Below, in pieces: positions 1-12,160 of a stretch of DNA of 45,695 bases (within the stretch, counting starts at the first letter, position 1; every line of letters starts with the position of its first letter). Origin of the DNA: a phage; NCBI GenBank assembly GCA_032325415.1, contig GCA_032325415.1_4119.2. The stretch is one strand, 5' to 3'. The notes under the pieces were generated by a model that saw only the letters and a list, made by a program, of their open reading frames with translations, ran no database searches and was not told where the DNA came from. Both the position numbers and the translations under genes were made by a program.

Positions 1-150
1 AGCATGGGTTAACAATTTAATCCCCCTGGCAATGACTCAATACGAATTTAATATGTGTACAAAGATTGTTTTAACTACTAATGATATCTCTAATACGTAC
101 TACTTCCTATTAAGAGTACTATATGGTACTTTGAAATAATAAGGTATACT

Positions 151-357
151 ATGCAGAACATAAAAAACTATAAAGAGTACTATATAAGTAAACTACCACC
201 GACTGACCAAGCATGGATTAGATCTATAATAGTACTGGCATTTAATAGATATGCATTTAACAGATGTACCGAGATTGCTATAGACCCTTATAATATTAAA
301 GAGAATGTACAGCATAATCAGTACTACTATATGTTAATGCTTATATATAGGAAGTAA
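151..357 (+). CDS. hypothetical small protein (68 aa)
   Basis: ORF from track; weak SD-like AAGG upstream; no canonical promoter cassette; lies in ORF-poor structured region. Confidence 0.3.
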   Translation: MQNIKNYKEYYISKLPPTDQAWIRSIIVLAFNRYAFNRCTEIAIDPYNIKENVQHNQYYYMLMLIYRK

Positions 358-796
358 TTCAACATATAGACAGGGGAAGCTCCGCAGGGAAAGCATTGGA
401 CAGGCTTTAACATATGTTATATATGTTAAAATTCAGCCTGGACAAATGCGATCACTAGGATTCTCCCCAGGCTAAACCCCGTAATCATATGTAGTCATAA
501 GTAATCATATATAAACATTTATATGAGCACCGTAGAATCACAGAATGATTATATATGATTCAGTACTGATTAGTATAGACAAGATTGCTCAAGAATGCTA
601 GGGAAGGATTCAGTACTGCCCCAAAAGTATTCAGTACTGAAGGTGTCGATATGCCACTAAGTAGGCAGAGGAAGTCTGCCGTACTTTGTAGTTTCCAAGC
701 TCCTTTTCCATTTTGCAAATTACATCAAATGTAATCAAAAGTAATCACGCAATGATTAGTACTGAATTATTACTTTCACCTTAATTTCAATTACCC

Positions 797-816
797 TTTT
801 ACCCTTCGGGGTAAAA
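797..816. other. stable hairpin TTTTACCC-UUCG-GGGTAAAA, flanked by direct repeats TTCAATTACCC
   Basis: 8-bp stem with UUCG tetraloop; A/T runs on both sides (possible bidirectional terminator or structural element). Confidence 0.5.
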
Positions 817-1024
817 TTCAATTACCCCTTGAGGCTCCAGCAAAAAGTTGGTTAGTACTCCATCCTAAATCTCGATCCTAAAAATTTTGGAGTACCTATG
901 AAATAAAAGTTGGATCTTCGAAAGTTGAAATTTACGTTGGGACGTTTATGATTTGTGGGATATAATGATGTTTGTAGTCGGGTAGTTCTCAAGAATATCA
1001 GTACTGAAAGATGAAAGAAAGTTA

Positions 1025-1052
1025 TTGACTTTATGATTCAGTACTGTATAAT
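1025..1052 (+). promoter_or_regulatory. sigma70-like promoter with CAGTACTG in spacer; no ORF downstream (possible ncRNA)
   Basis: -35 TTGACT 1025-1030, 16-bp spacer, -10 TATAAT 1047-1052; downstream has hairpins CTGTC-GTGA-GACAG and CCACCAGC-ACAA-GCTGGTGG but only a 20-codon ORF. Confidence 0.45.
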
Positions 1053-1382
1053 GTTCTACATAGAGAGATGAGTTGCTGCGAACAATTCATTTACTCTACC
1101 TCCTGTCGTGAGACAGTACAGAAAAGATAGTTCCTCCTGTGGTGGTACATCTTTTTGAACCTCATATGAAAATCGTAATAACAGTACTGATATTAACAGA
1201 ATGGTATCAGTACTGATTTTAATCTAAAGCATTATGCCACCAGCACAAGCTGGTGGATTCCCTCTAACAGTATTCAGTACTACATGATGGTCTTCATCCT
1301 CCTAGGGTAACATAGTGAGGGCTATGATGGCAGTACTGAATACTCCCTTTCAAAAGATAGATCTATGGTATAGTACTGACGG

Positions 1383-1556
1383 ATTTTGGGCGTAGTTACC
1401 CTGGATGGATTTTGGACGTAGATATGTCTAGCCCTCCAGAAGTCTGGAAGTAAAGATGGCTATCCATCTAGACGGCTAAACGGCTAGATTTCTGGATGGC
1501 TGGATGGCTAGACGTTTGGACGGCTAAACGTCTGGATGTATGGATGGCTAAATCAA
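1383..1556. repeat. iteron-like cluster of short direct repeats (TGGATGGCT, GACGGCTAAACG, ATTTTGGGCGTAG)
   Basis: Repeated units seen directly: GACGGCTAAACG x2, TGGATGGCT x3-4, ATTTTGG(G/A)CGTAG x2; non-coding. Confidence 0.6.
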
Positions 1557-2170
1557 AATTTTTATTTTGTTTTTTCCAATAGTTCCCCTACCGCGTGGGG
1601 ATAGTTTCCCCGCAGTATCTGGTGTTAGATTTTTCTGAATCTGGAATCATTATCTTATAAACTGGGGGCAATGTCAACGGCCTGGACGGATATTTTTAAA
1701 AATTTTTTCAGTACTGAATTTTGGGCGTAACTATGCACCCGGTGGGCTTGAGTCTTTCTCGACTTGATGGAACTATTATACAGTACTGAAAAAATAAAGC
1801 AATACCCTGGAAGCAAAAAAGTTTTAATTAATTTGCTTGCTATCCTGGGCCGGACTATGGTACTATGTTTCAGTACTGAGAAAGTGCGTTTACCTGCTAG
1901 GGTGCGGGAGTGTATCCTTTTTTTATATCTTGAATTTTGGGCGTAATTCCGCACCCTCTGGGGTTTCCGCTTTCTCGCGTCTATGTAGTAATTATACGCT
2001 TTTTCAGGATCAAGTCAATACCTAAAAACAAAATAATTGAAAATAATTTAACGCGTTTAAACGGCCTGTAAAGCCCTGGAATGATTGGAATGGTGCAAAT
2101 GTATAGCTTATGTGTATTAATGCGTTAGAATGCGTCTGAGGCCGTTTTACGGGGTATAGGGATGATTTAG

Positions 2171-2268
2171 TGGATTGATTCAGTACTGAATAATAGTACT
2201 ACTATATAGAAAGATAGTTCCCCTGGATTGATTCAGTACTGAATAATAGTACTCCTATATAGAAAGAA
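2171..2268. repeat. tandem direct repeat, 2 copies of about 44 bp separated by about 10 bp
   Basis: TGGATTGATTCAGTACTGAATAATAGTACT(A/C)CTATATAGAAAGA at 2171-2214 and 2225-2268, one mismatch. Confidence 0.8.
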
Positions 2269-2298
2269 AACTATTTTAAAAGTATTTGTAGAAAGTAC

Positions 2299-2326
2299 TT
2301 GCACCGTACTGATAAAAGCGTATAAT
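2299..2326 (+). promoter_or_regulatory. sigma70-like promoter (cassette type)
   Basis: -35 TTGCAC, 16-bp spacer, -10 TATAAT 2321-2326; followed by GTTTTACATC and hairpin GCGGGA-ACACT-TCCCGC. Confidence 0.65.
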
Positions 2327-2381
2327 GTTTTACATCGAGAGCGGGAACACTTCCCGCTACACATTAAGAGAGATTAAAACG

Positions 2382-2744
2382 ATGGCGACTCAAATCAATA
2401 AAATCATGCTTAACCTGGTAAACTTCCGCGATGAGATGAAAGGTCTTCCGGCTGAAACGGTAAAAATTCACATTGCAGCTTATCGGGAACTTATTGCAAT
2501 GTTGCCGCTTAAGCGTGAACAATACGCCGCTACTTTGATGCTGGATTCAATGATCCATATAATGATCTCAAATGATTTGACGATGGTTTATCAGTATATG
2601 GGCGAAAATTTCGCGGTGTGTAGTAAGCCAGTACCAGGGATGGCAACAACTGAGGAATTGCACGGCTTAAACTTAAAACAAGATGCATGGGATAATATGC
2701 CTCGTTTCCTGGTATGGGCTGACAGTGGCAAAATTTACAAATAA
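2382..2744 (+). CDS. hypothetical protein (120 aa)
   Basis: ATG 2382 after promoter, 5' hairpin and SD; track ORF 2325 start lies inside the -10 element and is rejected. Confidence 0.65.
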   Translation: MATQINKIMLNLVNFRDEMKGLPAETVKIHIAAYRELIAMLPLKREQYAATLMLDSMIHIMISNDLTMVYQYMGENFAVCSKPVPGMATTEELHGLNLKQDAWDNMPRFLVWADSGKIYK

Positions 2745-2758
2745 GTTTAATAAAGTAC

Positions 2759-2786
2759 TTGCAAACTATGTTTAAAAGCGTATAAT
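2759..2786 (+). promoter_or_regulatory. sigma70-like promoter (cassette type)
   Basis: -35 TTGCAA 2759-2764, 16-bp spacer, -10 TATAAT 2781-2786; hairpin GGGGAA-TAG-TTCCCC 2800-2815. Confidence 0.65.
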
Positions 2787-2837
2787 GTTTTACATCAGGT
2801 GGGGAATAGTTCCCCACTATATAAGAGGATTAAAAAA

Positions 2838-3077
2838 ATGGCTAAATCAAAAATGTTCTTAGGTCACAAAAACAAAACTCATTGGAATGTAAGCCTTTGG
2901 ATTAATAACGATGAGGGATTGTATCGGTTGGCCCAGGACTTTATTAACGATAGCACTAATCGCAATGATGCGGCCCGTCATATGATGTTATTTTTAGAAC
3001 AGACTGGACAAGATAAAACACCGGACGGATTCAAATATAGCACTACTGCGATCCGTGCGGCGATGGTTGGAATGTAA
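2838..3077 (+). CDS. hypothetical protein (79 aa), paralog of 4875..5114
   Basis: SD AAGAGGA then ATG 2838; shares GHKNKTHWNVSLW...TPDGFKYSTTAIRAAMVGM with 4875..5114. Confidence 0.7.
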   Translation: MAKSKMFLGHKNKTHWNVSLWINNDEGLYRLAQDFINDSTNRNDAARHMMLFLEQTGQDKTPDGFKYSTTAIRAAMVGM

Positions 3078-3089
3078 TAGAATTTATTT

Positions 3090-3125
3090 AAAGTACTATC
3101 ATTTTTTGCGATAGTACTTTATAAT
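3090..3125 (+). promoter_or_regulatory. inverted repeat AAAGTACTATC-N9-GATAGTACTTT overlapping a -10 TATAAT (operator-type or terminator/promoter)
   Basis: Perfect 11-bp IR 3090-3100 / 3110-3120; TATAAT 3120-3125; -35 degenerate. Confidence 0.45.
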
Positions 3126-3162
3126 AGTGTTTTATTCATACACCAACGATAAGGGCAACAGC

Positions 3163-3429
3163 ATGAATATTAAGTATTTTGCGACGCGTGAACAAGCTCG
3201 GATCGCCGCACGCCAGGACGGGGCAACGTTTAAAGATATGGGAGCGGGATCGGCAAGTGGTGAACGTTGGGCCATTGTAAAGCGTAGTACGGCCAGATCA
3301 TTACAGTACTGGTTAGCGGCCTTAAAAAGTCCCGATAGTGTATCGCGTCGAGTGGTAGAAATAAAGCTCGACCGAAAGGGCAACCGCGTGACCGTGTACC
3401 GTACTAAAAAGATTGCAGTACTTGAATAA
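3163..3429 (+). CDS. hypothetical protein (88 aa), paralog of 15901..16296
   Basis: ATG 3163 downstream of TATAAT; shares KYFATREQARIAARQDGATFKDMG and DRKGNRVTVYRTKK with 15901..16296. Confidence 0.65.
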   Translation: MNIKYFATREQARIAARQDGATFKDMGAGSASGERWAIVKRSTARSLQYWLAALKSPDSVSRRVVEIKLDRKGNRVTVYRTKKIAVLE

Positions 3430-3436
3430 AAAGTAC

Positions 3437-3464
3437 TTGCAAACTATGTTTAAAGGCGTATAAT
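3437..3464 (+). promoter_or_regulatory. sigma70-like promoter (cassette type)
   Basis: -35 TTGCAA, 16-bp spacer, -10 TATAAT 3459-3464; hairpin GCGGGAA-CTC-TTCCCGC. Confidence 0.65.
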
Positions 3465-3516
3465 GTTTTACATCGAGAGCGGGAACTCTTCCCGCCTATA
3501 ACCTGGAGTAATAAAA

Positions 3517-3747
3517 ATGACTAATATGTATATGACTGAAGTTAAAACCGTAAAAGATACTACCACGAATAAAACTACTTACTTACAGCGGATCTGTGGT
3601 GTATGGCAACGTATCAGCAAATCAAAGTACTTTAAATTAACATCATATGCAAATCGTTCGGATTCATTCAGTACTGAAATAAAAGGTAATAAAGTACACC
3701 AATACGGCACTTATTATTATTACAGCCTGGACGCGATTGTAGTATAA
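3517..3747 (+). CDS. hypothetical protein (76 aa)
   Basis: SD GGAGT then ATG 3517; track ORF. Confidence 0.65.
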   Translation: MTNMYMTEVKTVKDTTTNKTTYLQRICGVWQRISKSKYFKLTSYANRSDSFSTEIKGNKVHQYGTYYYYSLDAIVV

Positions 3748-3777
3748 GAAGTTTACAAATCTTTACAATTGCCGGTA

Positions 3778-3806
3778 TTGACTTATTTTGTCAGTACTGG
3801 CATAAT
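3778..3806 (+). promoter_or_regulatory. sigma70-like promoter with no ORF downstream
   Basis: -35 TTGACT 3778-3783, 17-bp spacer, -10 CATAAT 3801-3806. Confidence 0.5.
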
Positions 3807-3960
3807 GTATTCATTGGCAGATAAGCCGTAGCCCATAGGGTGCGGGAGTGTATCTATAGCAAAATTAGTTTAGTATAGTTACAATTGTGCACCCGGTGGG
3901 TTAGCTGTTGTCATGGGGTATATTATGCCAGTACTTGATAATGCTGTCAATACTTTTTTA
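3807..3960 (+). other. candidate structured non-coding transcript carrying GCCCATAGGGTGC and its inverted partner GCACCCGGTGGG
   Basis: No ORF; the two motif copies are about 50 nt apart in opposite orientation and could pair; ends in T-run near 3950. Confidence 0.3.
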
Positions 3961-3989
3961 CTATTCAGTACTGAAAACTATTTTTAAAA

Positions 3990-4172
3990 AGTACTTGCAA
4001 ACTATGTTTAAAGGCGTATAATGTTTTACATCAGGACGGGGAACGAAATAAGTAACTCCCCGTTAAGTAGCCCAGGAGTAAGGCACACGAAAAACTCCCC
4101 TGATAAAATAGTTTGACAAATGTTTTTAAAAGCGTATAATACTTACATCAACTACTGAATGAGGGTTACAAA
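3990..4172 (+). repeat. dual-promoter leader module, copy 1 (near-identical to 14936-15117)
   Basis: Promoter A (-35 TTGCAA 3995-4000, -10 TATAAT 4017-4022), hairpin ACGGGGA...TCCCCGT, conserved AAGTAGCCCAGGAGTAAGGCACACGAAAAACTCCCCTGATAAAATAG, promoter B (-35 TTGACA 4113-4118, -10 TATAAT 4135-4140). Confidence 0.7.
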
Positions 4173-4784
4173 ATGAAAACTATCACTACTACTACTTATG
4201 TTATGGCTTTTTCTGAATTGAACGCAGAACAACAAACGTCAGCTATCGAACTGGTTCGGGAACGTGAAAAAAACTCAAACGACAATTATTTTTCTGAAAG
4301 TGAAATTGAATACTATAAAGAAACAGTACTACCGGAATATGGCATTAATGACGCTGAAATACAATTCAGTGGTTTTTGGTCCCAGGGTGACGGTGCATCA
4401 ATCAGTACTGACAGCGTGGACGCAGTGAAGTTTTTACGCAAGATTAAAGCGTTAACGAAATATCGTTCTATCCGTCACTTGTTGAATGAAGATGATTTGG
4501 CAATGAGTGTAGAACGTTCACACTCTCGCTACGCACACGAAAACACGGTAAGCGGGTACATTGAATCGGCTTACACTGATTTAACCGCAAAACAAGAAAC
4601 GTTAGTTAATGAGCTTGAGGAACTACTCACTGAAACTATTCGTGAATTGTCCCGCAAGTTGTACCGTGATTTAGAGAATGCATATGAGGATCAATTCACT
4701 ACTGAAAACATTACGGCACTGATTGAGGGTAACGAGTATCAATTCAATGTTATTGATGGCGTAGTAGAATCAATCGAATATTAA
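4173..4784 (+). CDS. hypothetical acidic protein (203 aa)
   Basis: SD GAGGG then ATG 4173; track ORF; contains FSGFWSQGDGASI motif; function not recognised with confidence. Confidence 0.7.
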   Translation: MKTITTTTYVMAFSELNAEQQTSAIELVREREKNSNDNYFSESEIEYYKETVLPEYGINDAEIQFSGFWSQGDGASISTDSVDAVKFLRKIKALTKYRSIRHLLNEDDLAMSVERSHSRYAHENTVSGYIESAYTDLTAKQETLVNELEELLTETIRELSRKLYRDLENAYEDQFTTENITALIEGNEYQFNVIDGVVESIEY

Positions 4785-4796
4785 TTTAAAAAGTAC

Positions 4797-4824
4797 TTGC
4801 AAACTAAGTTTAAAAGCGTATAAT
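4797..4824 (+). promoter_or_regulatory. sigma70-like promoter (cassette type)
   Basis: -35 TTGCAA, 16-bp spacer, -10 TATAAT 4819-4824; hairpin GCGGGGA-GTGGT-TCCCCGC. Confidence 0.65.
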
Positions 4825-4874
4825 ACTTTATATCGAGGCGGGGAGTGGTTCCCCGCTCAAACGAGGATTTAAAA

Positions 4875-5114
4875 ATGGCTAGTACTAAAACTTACAACGG
4901 TCACAAAAACAAAACTCATTGGAATGTAAGCCTTTGGGTTAATAACGGTGAGTCATTGTATCGGCTTGCTCAAAGTTGCATCGCACAAAGTAGAACTAAA
5001 GATATTGCTGCGGAATGTATGTACCGCAGATTAAAAGCCAACGGTACTACTACAACGCCGGACGGCTTTAAGTATAGCACTACTGCGATCCGTGCTGCAA
5101 TGGTTGGAATGTAA
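4875..5114 (+). CDS. hypothetical protein (79 aa), paralog of 2838..3077
   Basis: SD ACGAGGA then ATG 4875; paralogy with 2838..3077. Confidence 0.7.
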   Translation: MASTKTYNGHKNKTHWNVSLWVNNGESLYRLAQSCIAQSRTKDIAAECMYRRLKANGTTTTPDGFKYSTTAIRAAMVGM

Positions 5115-5133
5115 TATTCAGTACTGAGATAAT
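5104..5133 (+). promoter_or_regulatory. putative promoter with CAGTACTG in spacer and downstream hairpin
   Basis: -35 TTGGAA 5104-5109, 18-bp spacer, -10 GATAAT 5128-5133; hairpin GGCGGG-N8-CCCGCC 5134-5153. Confidence 0.45.
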
Positions 5134-5171
5134 GGCGGGTAATAGTTCCCGCCTTTACTGAGGGTTATCTA

Positions 5172-5432
5172 ATGAGTAAAGTAATTGCCTATACAGTACT
5201 AAGTAAATCATTATCTATCAGTCATTGCACCGATGGTTATTGGCTATTTGATGAAACGCGTGGCATGAATTTAGCTATGCGTGCAAAAACTGCTGAGGCG
5301 GCGTATATTCAAGCACTGGAATACTACCAGGAACGTTTAAAGGAAGTAGAAGAAGATTATAAAAGCCTCAAAGCGAAAGTAGATCATTTCGTCGGTCAAT
5401 TCATCGAGGAAGACGACGACAAACAATATTGA
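5172..5432 (+). CDS. hypothetical protein (86 aa)
   Basis: SD GAGGG then ATG 5172; track ORF. Confidence 0.65.
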   Translation: MSKVIAYTVLSKSLSISHCTDGYWLFDETRGMNLAMRAKTAEAAYIQALEYYQERLKEVEEDYKSLKAKVDHFVGQFIEEDDDKQY

Positions 5433-5440
5433 AAAAGTAC

Positions 5441-5468
5441 TTGCAATTAGTTTTCAGTACTGTATAAT
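5441..5468 (+). promoter_or_regulatory. sigma70-like promoter
   Basis: -35 TTGCAA 5441-5446, 16-bp spacer containing CAGTACTG, -10 TATAAT 5463-5468. Confidence 0.6.
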
Positions 5469-5506
5469 ACTTTATATCGAGTTAACACTATCCAGGAGCT
5501 TTAATC

Positions 5507-5689
5507 ATGACAACATTATCTGAGGTTATCCGCGAGCAAGCTGCGAAAGCTGGAATGACTGTTATTGATGTAGGGATCGAGGTCGAGATCTCCCCTAACG
5601 AATTGCAAGGCATACCCATGCCTACTAGCTGGGATCGTGCGGGGCGTATGATGCGTGATCACTGGACACTAAGCAATAAAGGCGTATAA
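5507..5689 (+). CDS. hypothetical protein (60 aa)
   Basis: SD CCAGGAG then ATG 5507; stop TAA 5687-5689 lies inside the next -10 hexamer. Confidence 0.6.
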   Translation: MTTLSEVIREQAAKAGMTVIDVGIEVEISPNELQGIPMPTSWDRAGRMMRDHWTLSNKGV

Positions 5690-5690
5690 T
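5663..5690 (+). promoter_or_regulatory. sigma70-like promoter embedded in 3' end of upstream gene
   Basis: -35 TGGACA 5663-5668, 16-bp spacer, -10 TATAAT 5685-5690; leader is a duplicate of the 5469-5506 leader. Confidence 0.55.
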
Positions 5691-5728
5691 ACTTTATATC
5701 GAGTTAACACTATCCAGGAGTAACGGCA

Positions 5729-5917
5729 ATGTTTAATATTTTAATCGTTAATGAACAAGGTAACGAGATTGAAACAATTCAATCCCCAATTAATCCGATT
5801 GGTGCTCATAGTCTGGTAACAGAAAAAGCGGTTTATGATTGTATAGAGTTTTCTGCGTCCTTTAAAAATAATCAGATTGTTGTGCACGTTGAAAATGATT
5901 TTATGGAATTTAATTAA
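5729..5917 (+). CDS. hypothetical protein (62 aa)
   Basis: SD CCAGGAGT then ATG 5729; track ORF. Confidence 0.6.
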   Translation: MFNILIVNEQGNEIETIQSPINPIGAHSLVTEKAVYDCIEFSASFKNNQIVVHVENDFMEFN

Positions 5918-5923
5918 AAGTAC

Positions 5924-5951
5924 TTGCAATTAGTTTTCAGTACTGTATAAT
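5924..5951 (+). promoter_or_regulatory. sigma70-like promoter (cassette type)
   Basis: -35 TTGCAA 5924-5929, 16-bp spacer, -10 TATAAT 5946-5951; hairpin AGGGAGAA-ATGG-TTCTCCCT. Confidence 0.65.
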
Positions 5952-6001
5952 GGTTTACATCAAAGGGAGAAATGGTTCTCCCTGGTAATGAGGAAAATAC
6001 A

Positions 6002-6223
6002 ATGGCTAATATCACTACTCTTTCCCAACTGGAAGCACTGGTTAAATCTATGCGGGAACATGCTGACAAAATCGGCGTACAAGATCCAGCCGTTTGCTTC
6101 TGCGACGAATTGAATGATGATACCCTGGTAATAGCAGAAGTCCAGGACGTTTCTAACTATTCCTCGCGTTACACTGGCGGCGTAGCAAATAAAGGCGACT
6201 TCTGTTTATACCTTACAAAATAA
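6002..6223 (+). CDS. hypothetical protein (73 aa)
   Basis: SD GAGGAAA then ATG 6002, in frame with track ORF 5972 whose start lies in the leader hairpin. Confidence 0.65.
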   Translation: MANITTLSQLEALVKSMREHADKIGVQDPAVCFCDELNDDTLVIAEVQDVSNYSSRYTGGVANKGDFCLYLTK

Positions 6224-6228
6224 CAACG

Positions 6229-6258
6229 CGGGGAGATAATAACTCCCCGTTACTTTTT
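6229..6258 (+). terminator. rho-independent terminator
   Basis: CGGGGAG-ATAATAA-CTCCCCG followed by TTACTTTTT. Confidence 0.7.
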
Positions 6259-6391
6259 CAGTACTGAATCATTTAATAGACGGATCTCGGCACCCGGTGG
6301 GTTAGTGACTGTTTCGTCTTGATGTAGTAATTATGCCAGTACTGGATGCACTTGTCAACAATTATTTTTCAAATACTTTTTATTAAAATAC

Positions 6392-6419
6392 TTGCAATTA
6401 GTTTTTAAACGCGTATAAT
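6392..6419 (+). promoter_or_regulatory. sigma70-like promoter (cassette type)
   Basis: -35 TTGCAA 6392-6397, 16-bp spacer, -10 TATAAT 6414-6419; hairpin GGGGA-GCGGT-TCCCC. Confidence 0.65.
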
Positions 6420-6466
6420 GTTTTGCATAGGGGGAGCGGTTCCCCTGGTAACTAAGGAATAAGAAA

Positions 6467-6703
6467 ATGGTCGAACAAATCAAATCAACGTCTGCGAATG
6501 TAACGGGAACGGTATCCCACTTTACTAGTGATGAATCGCGTGGTGTTCCTTATTGTGCTGTACATGTAAACACTGATGGCAACTACTGGTTTACGGTTTA
6601 CGGATCATATTCATTTGGTCGGCCAGGACATCAAAAAATCCTGGATAAAGTACAACCAACGGGTAAAAATATCACTGCCGAAATGTTTTATAAAAAATCA
6701 TAA
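6467..6703 (+). CDS. hypothetical protein (78 aa)
   Basis: SD TAAGGAAT then ATG 6467; track ORF. Confidence 0.65.
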   Translation: MVEQIKSTSANVTGTVSHFTSDESRGVPYCAVHVNTDGNYWFTVYGSYSFGRPGHQKILDKVQPTGKNITAEMFYKKS

Positions 6704-6708
6704 AGTAC

Positions 6709-6736
6709 TTGATAATAGTTTTTAGTACTGTATAAT
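6709..6736 (+). promoter_or_regulatory. sigma70-like promoter (cassette type)
   Basis: -35 TTGATA 6709-6714, 16-bp spacer, -10 TATAAT 6731-6736; hairpin GGGGGAGCGGTTCCCCC. Confidence 0.6.
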
Positions 6737-6787
6737 ATTTTACATCGCAAGGGGGAGCGGTTCCCCCTGGTAACTAAGGATAATCAA

Positions 6788-7087
6788 ATGAAAATTGCAA
6801 TCATCGCCCTGGCTTTATCTGTTTCCTCTTTCGCTGTTAATGCGTCGTTAGATGTAAGTAGTGAAAAATTCATTCAGTGCACTGTTGCAATGACCGATGA
6901 AAGTACTGGCGAGATTGTATTAAAGGATTTAGAGATCCAGCCGGAAGCATTTAAAAACGGCCCGTTCCATGAAGAAGACGAAAAAGGTAGCACGACAATT
7001 TATTACGATGCAAGTACTAAACGCGGTTCGGTCACTGTAATGGATACGGAGAAAGTAACTCATACTGGCGTTATTAATTGCCGTTGA
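6788..7087 (+). CDS. predicted secreted/periplasmic protein (99 aa) with N-terminal signal peptide
   Basis: N-terminus MKIAIIALALSVSSFAVNA has a basic residue, hydrophobic core and AxA-like cleavage context; SD TAAGGAT. Confidence 0.65.
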   Translation: MKIAIIALALSVSSFAVNASLDVSSEKFIQCTVAMTDESTGEIVLKDLEIQPEAFKNGPFHEEDEKGSTTIYYDASTKRGSVTVMDTEKVTHTGVINCR

Positions 7088-7108
7088 TAGATACTACGGG
7101 GTAACATC

Positions 7109-7339
7109 ATGACTAAGCGAATTGTTTTACTTAACGAAAGCAGTACTACACAACTACTTAACGCCGTACATTATGATATTGAAACGAGTGTTAATCTTAT
7201 CAGTACTGTAGTACTATTGGACACTGGAAAGGTCGCCAATGAAAAAGCTATTGCAGGTGTACTAACTGATCTTGAGCCTGGTAGCAGTACACCCATAACG
7301 TTAAATGATAAAGTGTTTAATGTTTTAATTACTGAATAA
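7109..7339 (+). CDS. hypothetical protein (76 aa)
   Basis: Track ORF 22 nt after previous stop; likely co-transcribed; followed by terminator. Confidence 0.55.
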   Translation: MTKRIVLLNESSTTQLLNAVHYDIETSVNLISTVVLLDTGKVANEKAIAGVLTDLEPGSSTPITLNDKVFNVLITE

Positions 7340-7345
7340 GTACAT

Positions 7346-7368
7346 AGCCCACCTGGTGGGCTTTTTTG
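7346..7368 (+). terminator. rho-independent terminator
   Basis: AGCCCACC-TGGT-GGGCT hairpin followed by TTTTTTGTTTTTG. Confidence 0.75.
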
Positions 7369-7421
7369 TTTTTGTAGTATCGTAGTACTGAGATACTTTG
7401 AAAATAGTTTTAAGAAAGTAG

Positions 7422-7449
7422 TTGACATTACCGCAGAAAAGCGTAGAAT
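7422..7449 (+). promoter_or_regulatory. sigma70-like promoter; leader is a diverged variant of the dual-promoter module
   Basis: -35 TTGACA 7422-7427, 16-bp spacer, -10 TAGAAT 7444-7449; hairpin ACGGGGAG...; second putative promoter TTGATA 7523-7528 / TAAACT. Confidence 0.55.
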
Positions 7450-7572
7450 GTATTACATCAAGACGGGGAGCACTAAGTAGACCGCCAGTAAGTCGAACGA
7501 AAAACTGGACACGTCGAGAAAACTTTGATACACTAATAAACGTAAACTAAACTTTAATTGAGGATTTATAAA

Positions 7573-8055
7573 ATGGCTAATGTAAAATCATTCATCAAAG
7601 CACTGGTAGCAAATGAAACTAACGTCGCGGCTGAGATCCTGGCTGAACTGGATAACGATACCATGAAAGCGGTACGCAATAATTTTAACATCGCTTACAG
7701 TACTGCGAAAGAACTACAAGCAAATAAAGCGGCAGAAATTGAAGCGGCAAAGGCGGCCCGTGAAGCAGAACTACAAGCAACAATCGAAAGTATTCAGGCG
7801 GCAGTAGTTGGATTGGATCTGGAAGTAGTTACAGAGATGGCACAAAAAGCCCTGGCGGTTAAGTATGGGGAAGACAAGCCAGAAGTAAAAGCCAAAAAAT
7901 GGATTCAGGAACGCGTAGCGGTAGTACTGGACAACGGGGAAGAATATCTGATTCCGGTGCGTGGTAACTGCATTGCGGTAGTACTGGACGCGATTAACGC
8001 CAGCGGTATGACTCGCGAGGAATGGATCGAATCTCATCGCAAAGTTGAAGCATAA
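7573..8055 (+). CDS. hypothetical Ala/Glu-rich protein (160 aa)
   Basis: SD TGAGGAT then ATG 7573, in frame with track ORF 7558. Confidence 0.65.
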   Translation: MANVKSFIKALVANETNVAAEILAELDNDTMKAVRNNFNIAYSTAKELQANKAAEIEAAKAAREAELQATIESIQAAVVGLDLEVVTEMAQKALAVKYGEDKPEVKAKKWIQERVAVVLDNGEEYLIPVRGNCIAVVLDAINASGMTREEWIESHRKVEA

Positions 8056-8076
8056 CAATTAAAGTACTGAATCACT

Positions 8077-8104
8077 AGCCCACCTTAAACGGTGGGCTTT
8101 TTTG
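8077..8104 (+). terminator. rho-independent terminator
   Basis: GCCCACC-TTAAAC-GGTGGGC followed by TTTTTTGTG. Confidence 0.8.
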
Positions 8105-8257
8105 TGTTTATCGTTTACCAGGCCACCAGCACCGCCTAGAAACGATTCTAACGCATTAAACTGATTATCTGATGCATTGCCCTAGCTGGTGGCGTTAAGG
8201 CTGTAAGAACGCGATTGAGAGCGTTTAAAGTATTTTGCAAAAAGTAATAAAAAGTAC

Positions 8258-8285
8258 TTGCACGATTAAGAGATTAGCGTATAAT
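8258..8285 (+). promoter_or_regulatory. sigma70-like promoter (cassette type)
   Basis: -35 TTGCAC 8258-8263, 16-bp spacer, -10 TATAAT 8280-8285; GTTTTACATC then GC hairpin. Confidence 0.65.
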
Positions 8286-8340
8286 GTTTTACATCGAGAG
8301 GGGGAAACGGTTCTCCTTCCAAATCAAAGGAATCAAAACA

Positions 8341-8568
8341 ATGGCTATTATCATTACTCGCGTATCTGGTACTACTGGCAACGAACAAGTAGTTGCAGTC
8401 ATTACCAATAAGGAAGGTGCGGAATTGCAAAATGCAATGAATACCTGGGCCGTTAATGAGTTCGGTCAGTGGGCTAGTGTAGCATACATTGAAACCTATC
8501 AAGTGCCGTCGATTAGTTTAACTGATTTGGGCGTTGAGCGTATCCTTTGCCTGGATGAATTAAATTAA
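8341..8568 (+). CDS. hypothetical protein (75 aa)
   Basis: SD AAAGGAAT then ATG 8341; track ORF 8284 start lies inside the promoter. Confidence 0.65.
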   Translation: MAIIITRVSGTTGNEQVVAVITNKEGAELQNAMNTWAVNEFGQWASVAYIETYQVPSISLTDLGVERILCLDELN

Positions 8569-8576
8569 AAAAGTAC

Positions 8577-8604
8577 TTGCAAAGTAAATCGAATAAAGTA
8601 TAAT
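8577..8604 (+). promoter_or_regulatory. sigma70-like promoter (cassette type)
   Basis: -35 TTGCAA 8577-8582, 16-bp spacer, -10 TATAAT 8599-8604; hairpin GGGGAGAA-ATGG-TTCTCCCC. Confidence 0.65.
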
Positions 8605-8653
8605 ACATTACATCAAGGGGAGAAATGGTTCTCCCCACTACAAGGAAACTAAA

Positions 8654-8797
8654 ATGAAAACTTGTCAATGTGGTCAGAAATCTATTACGGGTTTAAAGCG
8701 GGGCGTTGCTCTTTGCCAGTACCATTATAATTTACAAGTATGGGGTAAAGAATGGGCCGATCAAGTGGAAGCAATCAAGAAAGCAAAAAGTAAGTAA
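8654..8797 (+). CDS. small Cys-rich protein (47 aa), not in ORF track
   Basis: Complete cassette (promoter, hairpin, SD AAGGAAA, ATG 8654) with ORF MKTCQCGQKSITGLKRGVALCQYHYNLQVWGKEWADQVEAIKKAKSK; possible metal-binding CxC...C..H. Confidence 0.55.
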   Translation: MKTCQCGQKSITGLKRGVALCQYHYNLQVWGKEWADQVEAIKKAKSK

Positions 8798-8809
8798 AAA
8801 TATTATCAC

Positions 8810-8845
8810 AGTACTATTGACATAGTTTGATAGTACTGGCATAAT
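8810..8845 (+). promoter_or_regulatory. promoter with operator-like inverted repeat AGTACTAT-N12-ATAGTACT
   Basis: AGTACTAT 8810-8817, -35 TTGACA 8817-8822, ATAGTACT 8830-8837, -10 CATAAT 8840-8845. Confidence 0.6.
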
Positions 8846-8878
8846 AGATTTTATCAAGACAACTAAGAGGAAATTAAA

Positions 8879-9223
8879 ATGGCTAACATCAACACTATCG
8901 CAGCACAAAATATCAACCTGTCTTCTGTTGAAGTTGTACATATTGCCGCTCGGCGTTGGTTCCAGGCTTCATATGGTAACACTTATTTCTCTTTAAGTGT
9001 AGACGTAGAAATTGATGGTAATTTTATTGAAGTAGTAAACGTGCCGTTCCAATATGGATACGGGGATCACTTTGACACTGTAGCAATGGAAGAATTTAGC
9101 AAGGTTATTAATATGGAAGATAAAGAGTTTTTACGCGGTTCTTATCTTTCCCGTTTTTGCCGTGACAATAATATCACTGTTTACAGTTCGGTAACTGATG
9201 TTAAACGCAAAAAAGATCTTTAA
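8879..9223 (+). CDS. hypothetical protein (114 aa), distant paralog of 15482..15805
   Basis: SD TAAGAGG then ATG 8879; shares RW..GNTY and C-terminal DVKRKKD with 15482..15805. Confidence 0.65.
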   Translation: MANINTIAAQNINLSSVEVVHIAARRWFQASYGNTYFSLSVDVEIDGNFIEVVNVPFQYGYGDHFDTVAMEEFSKVINMEDKEFLRGSYLSRFCRDNNITVYSSVTDVKRKKDL

Positions 9224-9303
9224 TTAGCTTTACTTTATGCAGATACTTTGATATAGTGTCTGCATAGGGGAAAGAAATTAAATTAACTTAAGAGGATAGT
9301 ATA

Positions 9304-9573
9304 ATGAAAAATATCAGTACTTTAATCGATGCAGGTACTCATGTTCGTCGGTCTATGGTTGCAACCAGTACTACAAAACAAGTAGCGAGCGGTTATCTTG
9401 TATTTGTGCACGATGGAAAACTCCTGGAACGTTCAATCAATTTTGATGTTAAAAACAATTGCCGTTTTATTATCTTTAAGCGTGAGCAATATAAAATTGA
9501 TTTGCCAGCGAAGCCCATTAGCGGGGCGTATAACGTCTATTCATTGTTTGAGCGTCAACCATACACCTATTAA
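9304..9573 (+). CDS. hypothetical protein (89 aa)
   Basis: SD TAAGAGGA then ATG 9304; preceded by hairpin ATGCAGA-N-TCTGCAT 9236-9266. Confidence 0.6.
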   Translation: MKNISTLIDAGTHVRRSMVATSTTKQVASGYLVFVHDGKLLERSINFDVKNNCRFIIFKREQYKIDLPAKPISGAYNVYSLFERQPYTY

Positions 9574-9624
9574 TCAAAACATCGTTAGCGGTCGATTTAG
9601 GCCGCTTATATTGGGGATTATACC

Positions 9625-9897
9625 ATGAACGTTAATCAAGTACTGAATGAAGTTGAAAGCATCATTAAACCAATGAAACGCATTGATGCTATGTTAACAC
9701 CGGAAGAATGCCGCCTTTATGAGCGTTACAGCGTCGAACAAGTCCAGGCAATGGCTATGGCTACCCCAGCCGTTAAACCGCCTGAGAATGCGTTACAGGA
9801 CGTTACAGGGGATTATATCATTAATCCAGTACTAGGGAAGATGGCTGCAATCACCGAAGATCAACAAGACTACTTAAGCCAGTACTTAAAAGGTTAA
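9625..9897 (+). CDS. hypothetical protein (90 aa)
   Basis: Track ORF; SD GGGGA upstream. Confidence 0.55.
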   Translation: MNVNQVLNEVESIIKPMKRIDAMLTPEECRLYERYSVEQVQAMAMATPAVKPPENALQDVTGDYIINPVLGKMAAITEDQQDYLSQYLKG

Positions 9898-9902
9898 TTA
9901 AT

Positions 9903-10112
9903 ATGCTTACTGTACAGGATAAGATCGACATCTTAAAGGTTAATATGTATGTGATTGATGCCGTACCTGGTAAAGTATTTGCATACGATGATAGTACTGT
10001 AAGCGATTTCTACTATAGCCAGGCCGTGGGGGATCTTTCTGTACAGTCGGTTATTGAAAATGTAGTTAATGCAGCGTATGAGCATTTACTTTCAAATAGT
10101 ACTTGCAATTAG
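9903..10112 (+). CDS. hypothetical protein (69 aa)
   Basis: Track ORF 5 nt after previous stop; its stop TAG 10110-10112 lies immediately after the next -35. Confidence 0.55.
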   Translation: MLTVQDKIDILKVNMYVIDAVPGKVFAYDDSTVSDFYYSQAVGDLSVQSVIENVVNAAYEHLLSNSTCN

Positions 10113-10130
10113 TTTTTAAACGCGTATAAT
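10103..10130 (+). promoter_or_regulatory. sigma70-like promoter (cassette type)
   Basis: -35 TTGCAA 10103-10108, 16-bp spacer, -10 TATAAT 10125-10130; hairpin GCGGGAATAGTTCCCCC. Confidence 0.65.
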
Positions 10131-10182
10131 GTTTTACATCGAGAGCGGGAATAGTTCCCCCCTCACTTTTAAGGAATATGAA

Positions 10183-10329
10183 ATGAAAGCATCAAAAAAG
10201 AGTACTAACAAGAAAGCACGTTCAACCTTAGATGGGGTATTCCCTTTACGTTTCGTTGATGAAGTGGTTTCCTACCCGCCTGGCCTTACTCCTGAGATGG
10301 TAGAAAGTTTGCGTAAATCTAAAAAATAG
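10183..10329 (+). CDS. small basic protein (48 aa)
   Basis: SD AAGGAAT then ATG 10183, in frame with track ORF 10129 whose start is in the promoter. Confidence 0.55.
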   Translation: MKASKKSTNKKARSTLDGVFPLRFVDEVVSYPPGLTPEMVESLRKSKK

Positions 10330-10332
10330 TAC

Positions 10333-10360
10333 TTGCAATTAGTTTTTAGTACTGTATAAT
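10333..10360 (+). promoter_or_regulatory. sigma70-like promoter (cassette type)
   Basis: -35 TTGCAA 10333-10338, 16-bp spacer with CAGTACTG, -10 TATAAT 10355-10360; hairpin GGGGAGAA-ATGA-TTCTCCCC. Confidence 0.65.
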
Positions 10361-10410
10361 GTTTTACATGAAGGGGAGAAATGATTCTCCCCAATAACAG
10401 GAGAAACAAA

Positions 10411-10563
10411 ATGAAACAATACAACGCTCGGTTTGATGTTACTATCGGTAACGGCAAAGGTCAATTCTCTTTCAGTACTCGCCGCAGTTATACAGAAAAC
10501 TTCCTGCGTAATTGTGCACTGACCGCCGCTCAAATTAAACATTACTTTCAGGCTAAAAAATGA
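10411..10563 (+). CDS. small protein (50 aa)
   Basis: SD CAGGAGA then ATG 10411, in frame with track ORF 10381. Confidence 0.55.
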   Translation: MKQYNARFDVTIGNGKGQFSFSTRRSYTENFLRNCALTAAQIKHYFQAKK

Positions 10564-10649
10564 GATCATTAGCTTATTACAGTTCGGCCCTGGTCGGTGC
10601 ATTGATCGCGGCGTTGTTAGTAACCTATCTATTCTTTATGGTGATTTAA
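10560..10649 (+). CDS. small hydrophobic membrane peptide (29 aa)
   Basis: ATG 10560 overlaps upstream stop (ATGA); MRSLAYYSSALVGALIAALLVTYLFFMVI is a single predicted transmembrane helix; not in track. Confidence 0.45.
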   Translation: MRSLAYYSSALVGALIAALLVTYLFFMVI

Positions 10650-10784
10650 ATGAATCCTAACGGTATAGTTTACAGTACTCCTAAAACGAAAGCAGATAAA
10701 GCTAAAGCACGTAAAGCGAAAGTAAAGGAGTACATCAAGCAAGGCATGACACGAAAGGCCGCAGTACTTAAAGCTAAAAAATAA
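10650..10784 (+). CDS. small Lys-rich basic protein (44 aa)
   Basis: ATG 10650 directly follows the previous stop (TAAATG); MNPNGIVYSTPKTKADKAKARKAKVKEYIKQGMTRKAAVLKAKK; not in track. Confidence 0.4.
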   Translation: MNPNGIVYSTPKTKADKAKARKAKVKEYIKQGMTRKAAVLKAKK

Positions 10785-10787
10785 ATG

Positions 10788-10882
10788 AAAAAAGTGGTTG
10801 ACTTCGGTCAGCCATTTTGCTATTATATATTCATTGAGAGATAGCTCACTAGCCCACAGGGTGCAGGAGTGTATCTATTATA
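10788..10882 (+). repeat. R module copy 1: terminator-like hairpin with embedded promoter plus conserved core AGCCCACAGGGTGCAGGAGTGTATCT
   Basis: Hairpin GTGGTTGAC-TTCG-GTCAGCCAT (wobble-compensated), -35 TTGACT 10798-10803, -10 TATTAT 10821-10826; homologous to 14813, 17527, 19497. Confidence 0.65.
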
Positions 10883-10920
10883 TGAGTATTGAGTACTGAA
10901 AACTATTTTTAAAAAAGTAC

Positions 10921-10948
10921 TTGCAAACTATCTCAATAAGCGTATAAT
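10921..10948 (+). promoter_or_regulatory. sigma70-like promoter (cassette type)
   Basis: -35 TTGCAA 10921-10926, 16-bp spacer, -10 TATAAT 10943-10948; hairpin AGGGGAAAC-G-GTTTCCCCT. Confidence 0.65.
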
Positions 10949-10999
10949 GTTTTACATCGAAAGGGGAAACGGTTTCCCCTGGTAATAAGGAAACAAATC

Positions 11000-11341
11000 A
11001 TGACTATCTCAATTGCTCAATCTAACTTTGAAAATGAAATCATCGCCCAGGCACTGCGTTTAAATGATGGTCGGGCCGAAATTAATTACGGTTTCAATTC
11101 AGGCGGTTGTGAAAAATATCAGTACTTTGTAACGGCTGATGGCGGTGTCCTGGGTATCAATACAGTTATTGTAAACATCCAAAAAATTAATTTCAATGAT
11201 CCAGAGGATAGCCAGTTTTACATCACTGGCGTAGACGTGAACTATGAGGATGACTCACTAACTGATGATCACACTGGTGAGCGGTTAGAAAGTGCATACG
11301 GTGAAGATGATTATCAGTCCGGTCCAGAAGATTTCGAATAA
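11000..11341 (+). CDS. hypothetical acidic protein (113 aa)
   Basis: SD TAAGGAAA then ATG 11000; track ORF. Confidence 0.65.
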   Translation: MTISIAQSNFENEIIAQALRLNDGRAEINYGFNSGGCEKYQYFVTADGGVLGINTVIVNIQKINFNDPEDSQFYITGVDVNYEDDSLTDDHTGERLESAYGEDDYQSGPEDFE

Positions 11342-11355
11342 TATAAAAAAATAGT

Positions 11356-11383
11356 TTGACAATAGATTATAGTACTGTATAAT
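11356..11383 (+). promoter_or_regulatory. sigma70-like promoter (cassette type)
   Basis: -35 TTGACA 11356-11361, 16-bp spacer with AGTACTG, -10 TATAAT 11378-11383; hairpin GGGGAGAA-TAG-TTCTCCCC. Confidence 0.65.
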
Positions 11384-11436
11384 AGTTTACATCAAGGGGA
11401 GAATAGTTCTCCCCACTAACAGAGAGAGAAAACAAA

Positions 11437-11649
11437 ATGGCTAATATCCGGTCGAAATTAAAAAATGCAAAACAAGTTTTATTTTCAGATCATGAATACT
11501 TTAATAAAGATATTACAGGAGTTACAAGTATCAAGGAAGTAAAAGAAAAAACCGGCGTTTTGTGTGATGTGCGATTAGTTGGAACATTTGGGAATAACGT
11601 GCTATATCGCTGCGGTGATTACAATTTTACACTGACTATCATTAACTAA
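11437..11649 (+). CDS. hypothetical protein (70 aa)
   Basis: ATG 11437 after AGAGAGAGAAAACAAA leader; track ORF. Confidence 0.6.
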   Translation: MANIRSKLKNAKQVLFSDHEYFNKDITGVTSIKEVKEKTGVLCDVRLVGTFGNNVLYRCGDYNFTLTIIN

Positions 11650-11661
11650 AAATATTATCAC

Positions 11662-11697: not shown

Positions 11698-11731
11698 AAC
11701 TTTTATCAACTACACTACTAAGGAATTAAAA

Positions 11732-11911: not shown

Positions 11912-11922
11912 AATATATTACC

Positions 11923-12154: not shown

Positions 12155-12160
12155 GATTAT

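Follow-up and report, generated by a model that had tools for sequence, protein, structure and literature searches.

The left chromosome end of an Asteriusvirus jumbo coliphage: a long terminal repeat that begins with a probable composite cis-acting leader

Introduction

Gene-free terminal regions are familiar from the chromosomes of bacteriophages T7, T5 and P1. At the left end of T7, a terminal repeat, arrays of short repeats, the host-polymerase promoters A1-A3 and phiOL lie ahead of the first gene, and the repeat is duplicated when staggered nicks are followed by strand-displacement synthesis. In the pac site of phage P1, clusters of a short motif are placed on both sides of the cut. Replication may also be primed from promoters, as at oriF and oriG of T4 and at the secondary origin of T7 at phiOL. 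Here, we analyze positions 360-2280 of a 45,695-nucleotide stretch of phage DNA (GenBank assembly GCA_032325415.1, contig GCA_032325415.1_4119.2), which as a whole is called the window. An initial annotation, made from the sequence letters, took this repeat-rich region for a candidate replication origin, a pac/cos region or a genome terminus.

The source of the window is a jumbo coliphage of the genus Asteriusvirus (PBECO4/121Q type), the group to which nearly all good matches belong among the 159 phage records found by megablast with window positions 1-3000; the closest relative in this search, fEgEco12, is 97.5% identical over the full query length. For this genus the terminal repeat itself has already been published. 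The linear genome of fEgEco12 (374,733 bp) has direct terminal repeats (DTRs) of 20,993 bp, established with PhageTerm and restriction digests (PMC13070987), and the DTR of Sharanji is 20,668 bp by PhageTerm (PMC11895373). The genome papers give the length of the repeat and nothing on the leader that follows its start, and there is no mention in them of promoters, intergenic or non-coding regions (fEgEco12, PMC13070987; Sharanji, PMC11895373). Likewise, in the literature searched no description was found of the leader anatomy, i.e., a cut motif at both boundaries, an oriented set of Chi sites, a phased array that is shared with other phage families and a genome-wide palindrome.

We consider it likely that positions 360-2280 straddle the left boundary of a DTR of ~20.3 kb (660-21006), that base 660 is the start of the packaged chromosome, and that the ORF-free 1.7 kb (ORF, open reading frame) after this base is a composite cis-acting terminal leader. 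The region would consist of 300 bp of unique DNA ahead of the cut and the first 1.6 kb of the DTR. It contains several unrelated repeat families, each well over chance expectation, which the initial annotation had treated as a single phenomenon; there are at least four separate families, and their functions probably differ.

Genome ends and the boundaries of the repeat

The fEgEco12 record opens with 40 nt that match window position 660 and are found again at record position 353,741; the 40 nt with which it closes extend to window position 21006. In vB_Ec-M-J a DTR is annotated at 1-21525, and the G17 record contains both DTR copies, in the opposite orientation. These three records share identical end nucleotides: they start with AGTAGGCAGAGG... 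or AGTAGGCAGAGGAAGTCTGCC... (window 660) and finish with ...GGGCGGGTAACCT (21006). Such identity in three independent records is consistent with fixed, non-permuted ends, and by homology with the same three phages both copies of the DTR lie at the virion ends. The repeat array described below stands in CRJP21, ELP-22 and E9.1 at the same offset from the record start as in fEgEco12 (766), which is consistent with a common start point. As the ends of three relatives map to 660 and 21006, the window is therefore a collapsed junction, with the following layout (in motifs, the slash marks the cut):

1-659: unique DNA of the right chromosome end
360-659: last unique DNA before the DTR, with a conserved block (430-520) and three CAGTACTG copies (561, 611, 632) just outside the cut
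657-661, plus strand: left DTR boundary, CTA/AG; base 660 corresponds to the first base of the packaged chromosome
660-685: terminal imperfect palindrome, beginning at genome base 1 (DNA fold -6.9 kcal/mol, z = -4.71)
660-21006: direct terminal repeat, 20,347 bp
21003-21010, minus strand: right DTR boundary, CCT/TAGC (on the minus strand GCTA/AGG); the repeat ends with base 21006
from 21007: unique DNA of the left arm

The end of the repeat is also visible as a discontinuity in the window. GC content falls from 0.43 to 0.33 and the gene organization switches at ~21.0 kb, and the motifs confined to the DTR (AAAGTACTTGCA, GCACCCNNTGGG and Chi) all end by 21006. Right after the repeat (21104-27500), there is a run of ORFs of ~65-90 aa with overlapping stop and start codons and a GC content of 0.30-0.35, which has the appearance of a family of small genes in tandem. 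A comparable run of small ORFs precedes the window in fEgEco12 (1754-5553 of the record segment with the right repeat copy). The leader itself is placed between a run of tiny ORFs on one side and small genes, each with its own promoter, on the other.

Comparison with related genomes for a conserved position at genome ends, the check proposed with the initial annotation, thus puts the boundaries at 660 and 21006, and the terminus option is borne out to the nucleotide, base 660 being the exact first packaged base in fEgEco12, vB_Ec-M-J and G17. The pac/cos option gives way to the boundary of a long fixed DTR. A cos site, with cohesive ends and no terminal redundancy, is ruled out by the redundancy of 20-21 kb carried by the relatives, and a headful pac site with permuted ends is contradicted by the fEgEco12 paper (PMC13070987) and by the identical end nucleotides of the three records.

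A short motif recurs at the boundaries of several genera. The left boundaries (outside/inside) read caCTA/AGTAGG in the window, caCTA/AGTCCG in Muenster (Alcyoneusvirus) and cgCTA/TATC in fENko-Kae01, and the right boundaries, when reverse-complemented, read cgCTA/AGGTTA in the window, ggCTA/AGGCAT in fENko-Kae01, tgCTA/AGCCTA in Muenster and cgCTA/AGCGTT in CBB. Accordingly, CTA stands just outside seven of eight boundaries and CTA/AG spans six of them, and GCTA/AG is the right boundary in fENko-Kae01, Muenster and CBB as well. At the left boundary, the 19-nt outer flank CAGTACTGATATGCCACTA (followed by /AGT) is identical in Muenster, G17 and 121Q. Two inward-facing copies of one site on opposite strands fit the geometry of repeat duplication from two staggered nicks and strand displacement. 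Similarly to T7, this phage probably has fixed ends and a DTR, with a gene-free leader containing short phased repeat arrays and strong promoters, and staggered cuts at both repeat boundaries followed by fill-in would be a further likeness. However, the repeat is much longer here, 20.3 kb when compared to 160 bp in T7, and it encodes ~55 early genes.

A terminal palindrome similar to that at 660-685 is present in fENko-Kae01. At nt 13-17 from the left end, the pentamer AAGTC is shared by the window (672-676), Muenster, pEa_SNUABM_12 and XbC2, in otherwise different end sequences; fENko-Kae01 does not have it there.

A conserved leader without genes

The largest ORF between position 360 and the first early gene (ATG at 2382) is 99 aa long (1655-1954, minus strand). 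In fEgEco12 it is annotated (g614; 7678-7977 of the segment with the right copy) in the right copy of the repeat but not in the identical left copy. A protein-coding leader was rejected, as this ORF is broken by stops or frameshifts in five of ten relatives. When ten Asteriusvirus leaders were aligned for conservation and indel counts, 64 of 75 indel events were not multiples of 3. A tRNA/tmRNA scan of the window and a search of Rfam at a permissive threshold with window positions 1-4000 returned nothing. In most inspected relatives (121Q, A4, ph0011, CMSTMSU, G17 and vB_Ec-M-J), the equivalent of 360-2380 is without an annotated gene. The earlier statement that the first 2.3 kb hold no convincing ORF is correct for 360-2280, which contains no conserved ORF, but it is too broad, since small annotated ORFs are present in 1-357.

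The leader is conserved at or above the level of neighboring coding DNA: its segments are 90-97% identical among closer relatives, and the 5' end of the first gene only 86%. Outside the cut, close relatives share 96% identity in the block at 430-520. Conservation is lowest in the 140 bp directly before the cut and in the region of the 44-bp repeats. The most conserved part of the leader is the following one, whose core matches sequences near the left ends of Munch, 7t3 and fENko-Kae01 at ~94%:

843-960: block containing ...CCTAAAAATTTTGGAGTACC..., 93-96% identity

Outside the genus, the similarity found by a sensitive search with 360-2330 was limited to short islands. These belong to Alcyoneusvirus (Rak2, K64-1, Muenster), the Munch/fENko-Kae01 group, Eneladusvirus (Serratia BF, pEa_SNUABM_12) and Mimasvirus (XbC2, CBB). 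Wherever the ends of the phage are known, the island matches fall within the initial 1-2 kb of its repeat, and this part is ORF-free there as well. The match in CBB lies inside its repeat and not at the leader, so CBB was used only for the boundary. The order of elements shown by these comparisons is common to at least five genera of Rak2-like phages, judging from sequence:

1-6 in order: end sequence; AGTACT-type motifs; CCTAAAAATTTTGGAGTACC block; strong sigma-70 promoter without an ORF; two CAGTACT palindromes; CCACCAGC-loop-GCTGGTGG
7-12 in order: ATTTTGGGYGTA; repeat array; TTTTCCATTRG...CCGCG; leftward promoter; convergent promoter cassette with GCCCAYAGGGTGCGG / CCGCACCCTCTGGGG; first early promoter of the AAAGTACTTGCA type

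This conservation bears on the possibility that the region is a functionless remnant, made up of early genes in decay and of intergenic cassettes left behind. Leader elements do occur between early genes as well (promoters, the GGGTGCGG element and CAGTACTG), and the 44-bp repeat varies in copy number. However, genus identity of 90-97% equals or exceeds that of the neighboring coding sequence (86%), and the order of elements is kept in five genera that otherwise share little DNA similarity, which makes decay scarcely credible and leaves it disfavored.

The genome-wide palindrome

The initial annotation counted about 15 copies of a repeated short motif; 360-2280 contains 13 exact copies of CAGTACTG and four with one mismatch (a fifth lies just beyond, at 2304). 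Eight of the 13 exact leader copies extend to TCAGTACTGA and four to TTCAGTACTGAA. One pair is strictly kept:

1182-1215: pair of CAGTACTG palindromes, 26 bp apart, unchanged across 10 relatives and found in fENko-Kae01 too

The motif is not restricted to the leader. In the whole window it occurs 51 times vs. 0.64 expected, with a density of 6/kb in the leader, 1.8/kb in the repeat and 0.6/kb in the structural block. A 50-kb region of structural genes in fEgEco12 (150001-200000) has 31 copies, ~40 times the expectation, and 30 of them are inside coding sequence. AGTACT is over-represented ~6-13 times. It is unusual for an 8-bp palindrome to be over-represented throughout a 350-kb genome, and the TTCAGTACTGAA palindrome, scattered ~40-fold above chance over it, could mark phage DNA as 'self' or organize it.

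Two kinds of placement stand out. Clusters of (T)TCAGTACT(G) adjoin the left cut on its outer side, both in the window (561, 611, 632) and in other Asteriusviruses, Muenster and fENko-Kae01; in Muenster, 6-7 (T)TCAGTACT motifs are found at the corresponding position. With several copies of CAGTACTG flanking the cut to the left and to the right, the arrangement resembles pac of phage P1. However, P1 is packaged by headful and has permuted ends, and here the ends are probably fixed and CAGTACTG is abundant genome-wide. In addition, CAGTACTG is often placed directly upstream of a -10 hexamer or ~20 bp upstream of the AAAGTACTTGCA element, a position expected of the operator of a dimeric regulator. 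The literature searched for CAGTACTG yielded only primer sequences. A link between the AGTACT core and GTGAGTACTCAC, which we take to be the SlmA site of E. coli, was considered, but the flanking bases differ.

Chi sites oriented toward the ends

The initial annotation listed several hairpins and overlooked that one of them is a pair of E. coli Chi octamers. The Chi sites of the window are as follows:

1237-1256: inverted Chi pair CCACCAGC-acaa-GCTGGTGG, forming a hairpin
8123, minus strand: Chi
8185, 12176, 12686, 13636, 14904, 16705, 18111 and 19616, plus strand: Chi (with 8123, a span of 8123-19623)

All 11 Chi sites of the window (0.39 expected) are inside the DTR (P ~1.4e-4), and none occurs in the 24.7 kb past the repeat (21007-45695). 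Outside the repeat, three were found in ~81 kb, two of them in the 50-kb structural region of fEgEco12, so that Chi density is ~15 times higher inside the DTR. The orientations are sorted by position. The two minus-strand sites (1237 and 8123) are in the left part, and of the nine plus-strand sites seven, in the right half (12176-19616), are unaccompanied; 8123/8185 forms a further inverted pair. RecBCD reads Chi on the strand ending 3' at its entry point (PMC12315714). By this rule, the Chi sites active for the two ends should be the minus-strand copy at 578 bp from the left one and the plus-strand copies from 1.4 kb inside the right one; RecBCD that enters from the left would meet its first active Chi in the minus-strand copy at 1237. 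The pattern recurs in fEgEco12, vB_Ec-M-J, G17 (mirrored), fENko-Kae01, XbC2 and CBB.

Relatives have either ACAA or the reverse complement, TTGT, as the loop between the octamers, which themselves are kept; this flip (1245-1248) suggests inversion of the hairpin center by template switching. In the annotation of G17 the hairpin at 1237-1256 is called a transcription terminator, which was rejected, as there is no U-tract and a Chi pair explains it better.

Oriented Chi sites clustered at the termini have been described before, in P1 and in the Rec-less lambdoid phages (PMC12315714). As in P1 and the lambdoid phages LLS and MD8, Chi is enriched near the ends and oriented for RecBCD entry there (PMC12315714; Subramaniam and Smith, 2022, cited therein). 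However, one 20-kb repeat serves both ends in this phage, with orientations sorted by position, and its leftmost Chi site is an inverted pair forming a hairpin. Unlike the Rec-less LLS class, it also encodes its own T4-like recombination nuclease.

The motif (AT)GCGTTAGAAT(GCGT) occurs three times, once inverted (2120-2135, 8145-8156 and 12231-12243). Two of these copies are within ~55 bp of Chi, the one at 8145 lying between 8123 and 8185 and the one at 12231 lying 48 bp past 12176.

The phased array and the question of an origin

Between the Chi hairpin and the first leftward promoter, the leader contains an array whose 8-bp phasing the initial annotation overlooked, and related features:

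1383-1420, plus strand: two ATTTTGG(G/A)CGTA motifs ahead of the array (further copies at 1718 and 1934)
1440-1556, plus strand: array of CTRGAYGG-type units phased at exactly 8 bp, on which TRF and a pattern search agree
1553-1580: AT-rich tract of 28 bp flanking the array

The autocorrelation of the array is 0.59-0.62 at lags of 8, 16 and 24, against a background of ~0.17, and among Asteriusvirus relatives it differs by indels of 8 and 16 nt. The same unit type and phasing are found ~0.7 kb from the start of the Eneladusvirus and Mimasvirus XbC2 genomes, and also in T5-like Vibrio/Aeromonas phages. In the T7-like coliphage PGT2, a CTRGAYGG-type array at nt 40-104, inside the 260-bp DTR, is ~84% identical to that of the window over 65 nt. 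Unlike the arrangement in T7, the array here is 780 bp inside the end, and all promoters are of the host sigma-70 type. ATTTTGGGYGTA precedes the array in fENko-Kae01 and pEa_SNUABM_12. In fENko-Kae01 (690-800) and Muenster (790-910), the slot is filled by a different array with GAGAATGATTCTCATT-like units that resemble Fur boxes; several of them, e.g., GAGAATGATAATGATTCTCATT, come close to what we take to be the E. coli Fur box consensus. No Fur-like boxes were found in the window leader. The phased array is read as a putative protein-binding platform linked to chromosome ends.

An array of this kind might also act as a set of iterons. If the leader is or contains a replication origin, the AT tract (1553-1580) adjoining the array would be the unwinding element, and an R-loop primer would come from the promoters on either side, which are directed into the array, similarly to T4 oriF/oriG or T7 phiOL. 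These phages have T4-like replisomes (PMC5259590), and promoter-primed origins of the T4/T7 type would leave neither DnaA boxes nor a skew inflection. No DnaA box TTATCCACA within one mismatch occurs in 1-2400, and cumulative GC skew rises monotonically across the window with no inflection at the leader, which is weak evidence for a phage. The 260-bp DTR of PGT2 and the ends of T5-like phages, at which one would not expect an origin, also contain the CTRGAYGG array, it is replaced by a different array at the same place in fENko-Kae01 and Muenster, and no adjacent initiator gene was found. Thus, nothing tested supports the origin proposed in the initial annotation, and we regard it as quite unlikely.

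The resemblance to T5 raises another possibility, namely, that the leader is a signal for injection stop and two-step transfer, like T5 iss, at which host proteins bound to the repeats would halt DNA entry until early proteins have been produced. The left terminal repeat of T5 is long and carries early host-takeover genes, as does the DTR here, and in both, conserved non-coding regions are dense in direct and inverted repeats and palindromes and are better conserved than many ORFs of the repeat (for T5, Davison, 10.1101/866236). The same type of 8-mer array in T5-like Vibrio/Aeromonas phages is a further likeness. This general similarity to the untranslated repeat regions of T5 (10.1101/866236) is joined by arrays like host Fur boxes at the same place in related genera. 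However, the window has no Fur-like boxes, and the two regions lie at opposite ends of the repeat, T5 iss at the inner one, ~8% into the genome, and the leader at the outer one. The leader also has none of the paired DnaA boxes by which iss is defined (10.1101/866236), and no report of two-step transfer for these phages was found in the literature searched. An injection-stop function is therefore very improbable.

Promoters and predicted transcripts

Promoters were called by a consensus scan and by similarity to downstream early promoters. In the leader and at its end they are arranged as follows:

1025-1052, plus strand: promoter P1, TTGACT-16-TATAAT, 11/12 matches, 94-98% conserved, with CAGTACTG in the spacer and another at ~-60
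1059-1262, plus strand: predicted non-coding transcript of promoter P1, 204 nt, five hairpins, RNA fold z = -5.85
1649-1677, minus strand: promoter Pm1, TTGACA-17-GATAAT, conserved in fENko-Kae01 and pEa_SNUABM_12
1775-1802, minus strand: promoter Pm2, TTGCTT-16-TATAAT, with CAGTACTG in the spacer, nearly invariant
1837-1866, plus strand: weak promoter P2, placed by synteny with stronger promoters in other genera
2018-1991, minus strand: promoter Pm3, TTGACT-16-TATAAT
1837-2018: convergent promoter cassette, P2 facing Pm3 with an inverted repeat between them, CTAGGGTGCGG (~1897-1907) / CCGCACCCTCTGGGG (1949-1963)
2299-2326, plus strand: promoter P3, the first canonical early promoter, AAAGTACTTGCAC-16-TATAAT, followed by a hairpin, a ribosome-binding site and ATG 2382 (2299-2381)
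2340-2358, plus strand: hairpin of the 5' untranslated region (5'-UTR), z = -6.0

The promoter that the initial annotation placed at 1025 is confirmed by these matches, and the three minus-strand promoters are ones it overlooked. A strong promoter stands at the relative place of promoter P1 in four other genera. No ORF was found downstream of it; a 20-aa ORF after the promoter was rejected, since it is missing from EJP2 and has shifted in both G17 and CMSTMSU. For Pm2, the reverse complement matches promoters at 5451, 5934 and 17986. The convergent cassette is ~70% identical to Rak2, K64-1 and Muenster over 225 nt.

Several observations concern the early region beyond the leader. Early promoters between 2299 and 20000 follow the consensus AAAGTACTTGCA-N16-TATAAT, often succeeded by a 5'-UTR hairpin of the type GGGGAAnnnTTCCCC, and the 15 exact copies of AAAGTACTTGCA in the window are all within the DTR. 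So are the ten copies of GCACCCNNTGGG (1735-19569; none expected), which belongs to a recurring intergenic element (...CCCAYAGGGTGCRGRAGTGTATCT...) upstream of early promoters. In a second convergent cassette (3778-3950), plus-strand TTGACT-17-CATAAT and minus-strand TTGACA-17-CATAAT point at each other across the inverted repeat also seen at 1837-2018, and this cassette may make a sense/antisense RNA pair.

The density of promoters without genes could mean that the leader is primarily a set of small early non-coding RNA genes, with a ~200-nt RNA from promoter P1 and sense/antisense pairs from the cassette, the repeats being parts of promoters, operators and terminators. The conserved sigma-70 promoters without ORFs, the fold of the transcript (z = -5.85), some compensatory changes in hairpin 1 of EJP2, and a convergent cassette kept in five genera and duplicated at 3778-3950 are all in line with this, and the DTR of a distant relative, PA5oct, holds two abundant non-coding RNAs (PMC7318152). 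However, no Rfam match was obtained, and RNAalifold gave positive covariation terms: +1.22 for the transcript, with compensatory changes in six of 43 pairs, and +2 for the inverted repeat of the cassette, whose invariant core lends no covariation support. Much of the predicted structure consists of DNA palindromes (pairs of CAGTACTG and the Chi pair), and because palindrome loops flip between relatives, selection appears to act on the DNA. An RNA function would also leave the boundary motif, the orientation of Chi and the array unexplained. As the primary role of the leader it is unlikely. Of the structured non-coding transcript claimed from 1025, the predicted fold and the lack of an ORF stand, and covariation adds no net support.

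Other repeats of the leader

The remaining repeats noticed initially are of two kinds, duplicated sequences and a hairpin:

797-816: hairpin with a TTCG loop and an 8-bp stem, z = -3.05, conserved in most relatives, absent in CMSTMSU
2171-2214 and 2224-2267, plus strand: two 44-bp direct repeats with one mismatch and 9 bp between them (period 53), each with TTCAGTACTGAA

Two 44-bp copies are indeed present where an exact tandem duplication (2171-2268) had been described, but they are neither exact nor strictly tandem, and among relatives the copy number varies from one to more than two. The UUCG-tetraloop hairpin (797-816) was seen again, as was the repeated motif ATTTTGGGCGTA, with three exact copies and one with one mismatch. 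For CGTTAGAATGCGT, exact at 2123, the recurrence claimed near 12230 is real (12231), but the inverted copy claimed at 8150 exists only as a shifted 12-mer, ATGCGTTAGAAT (8145-8156).

A model of the chromosome ends and points that weigh against it

The features described above can be combined in a model. A terminase or nicking activity would recognize the CAGTACTG cluster and GATATGCCACTA/AG, cutting the top strand at 659/660, and the mirror-image GCTA/AG on the bottom strand at 21006/21007. From these two inward-facing nicks, 20 kb apart, strand-displacement synthesis would duplicate the repeat, as in the staggered-nick scheme of T7. In the leader, the TTCAGTACTGAA palindromes, often between -35 and -10, would serve as operators for a dimeric DNA-binding protein, and the sigma-70-type promoters on both strands would start early transcription and make short non-coding RNAs. 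The array would be a binding platform for end recognition or packaging, possibly for replication initiation. The inverted Chi pair at 578 bp and the nine plus-strand Chi sites facing the right end would stop RecBCD degradation from either end, and the same sites would load RecA for recombination of repeat by repeat into circles or concatemers, as proposed for phage P1.

Several points weigh against a terminus followed by a composite cis-acting leader, or against parts of it. The termini are carried over by homology from relatives and not from virion DNA of this isolate. The two nicks, their polarity and the responsible enzyme are suggested by a 5-bp motif, which occurs ~54 times in the window, so that cut specificity must come from flanking sequence; no flank that would give such specificity could be defined at the right boundary. 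The left boundary of pEa_SNUABM_12 (presumed, not measured), CTT/TATC, is the sole departure from the CTA consensus. A terminal hairpin was rejected as a universal feature, as it is not conserved across genera, being absent in Muenster and pEa_SNUABM_12. The same two phages are without GCTGGTGG in their first 4 kb. CAGTACTG is not specific for termini or promoters, because it is over-represented genome-wide, structural genes included. Lastly, the transcripts, protein binding and nicks are predictions from sequence, and the covariation tests of the RNA structures were uninformative.

Implications for jumbo phages with long terminal repeats

A wider joint reading, which we offer as tentative and rather doubtful, is that Rak2-like jumbo phages of at least five genera make their 20-kb repeats by one conserved sequence-specific system, in which two inward GCTA/AG nick sites are placed by a protein reading TTCAGTACTGAA, and that the CTRGAYGG array is an end-associated element shared by three phage families, namely, jumbo myoviruses, T5-like and T7-like phages, and read by a common, possibly host, factor.

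The analysis supplies candidates that can be mutated at the nucleotide level, i.e., the cut motif of both boundaries, the Chi arrangement, which predicts a RecBCD-dependent phenotype, the palindrome and the phased array; the last two can also be used as baits for binding proteins. Two annotations may be corrected as well, as the "terminator" of G17 is in fact a Chi pair and fEgEco12 has no gene at the 99-aa ORF marked in one of its repeat copies. Phage engineering and phage therapy depend in practice on knowledge of the true chromosome ends and of the cis-acting sequences that packaging requires.

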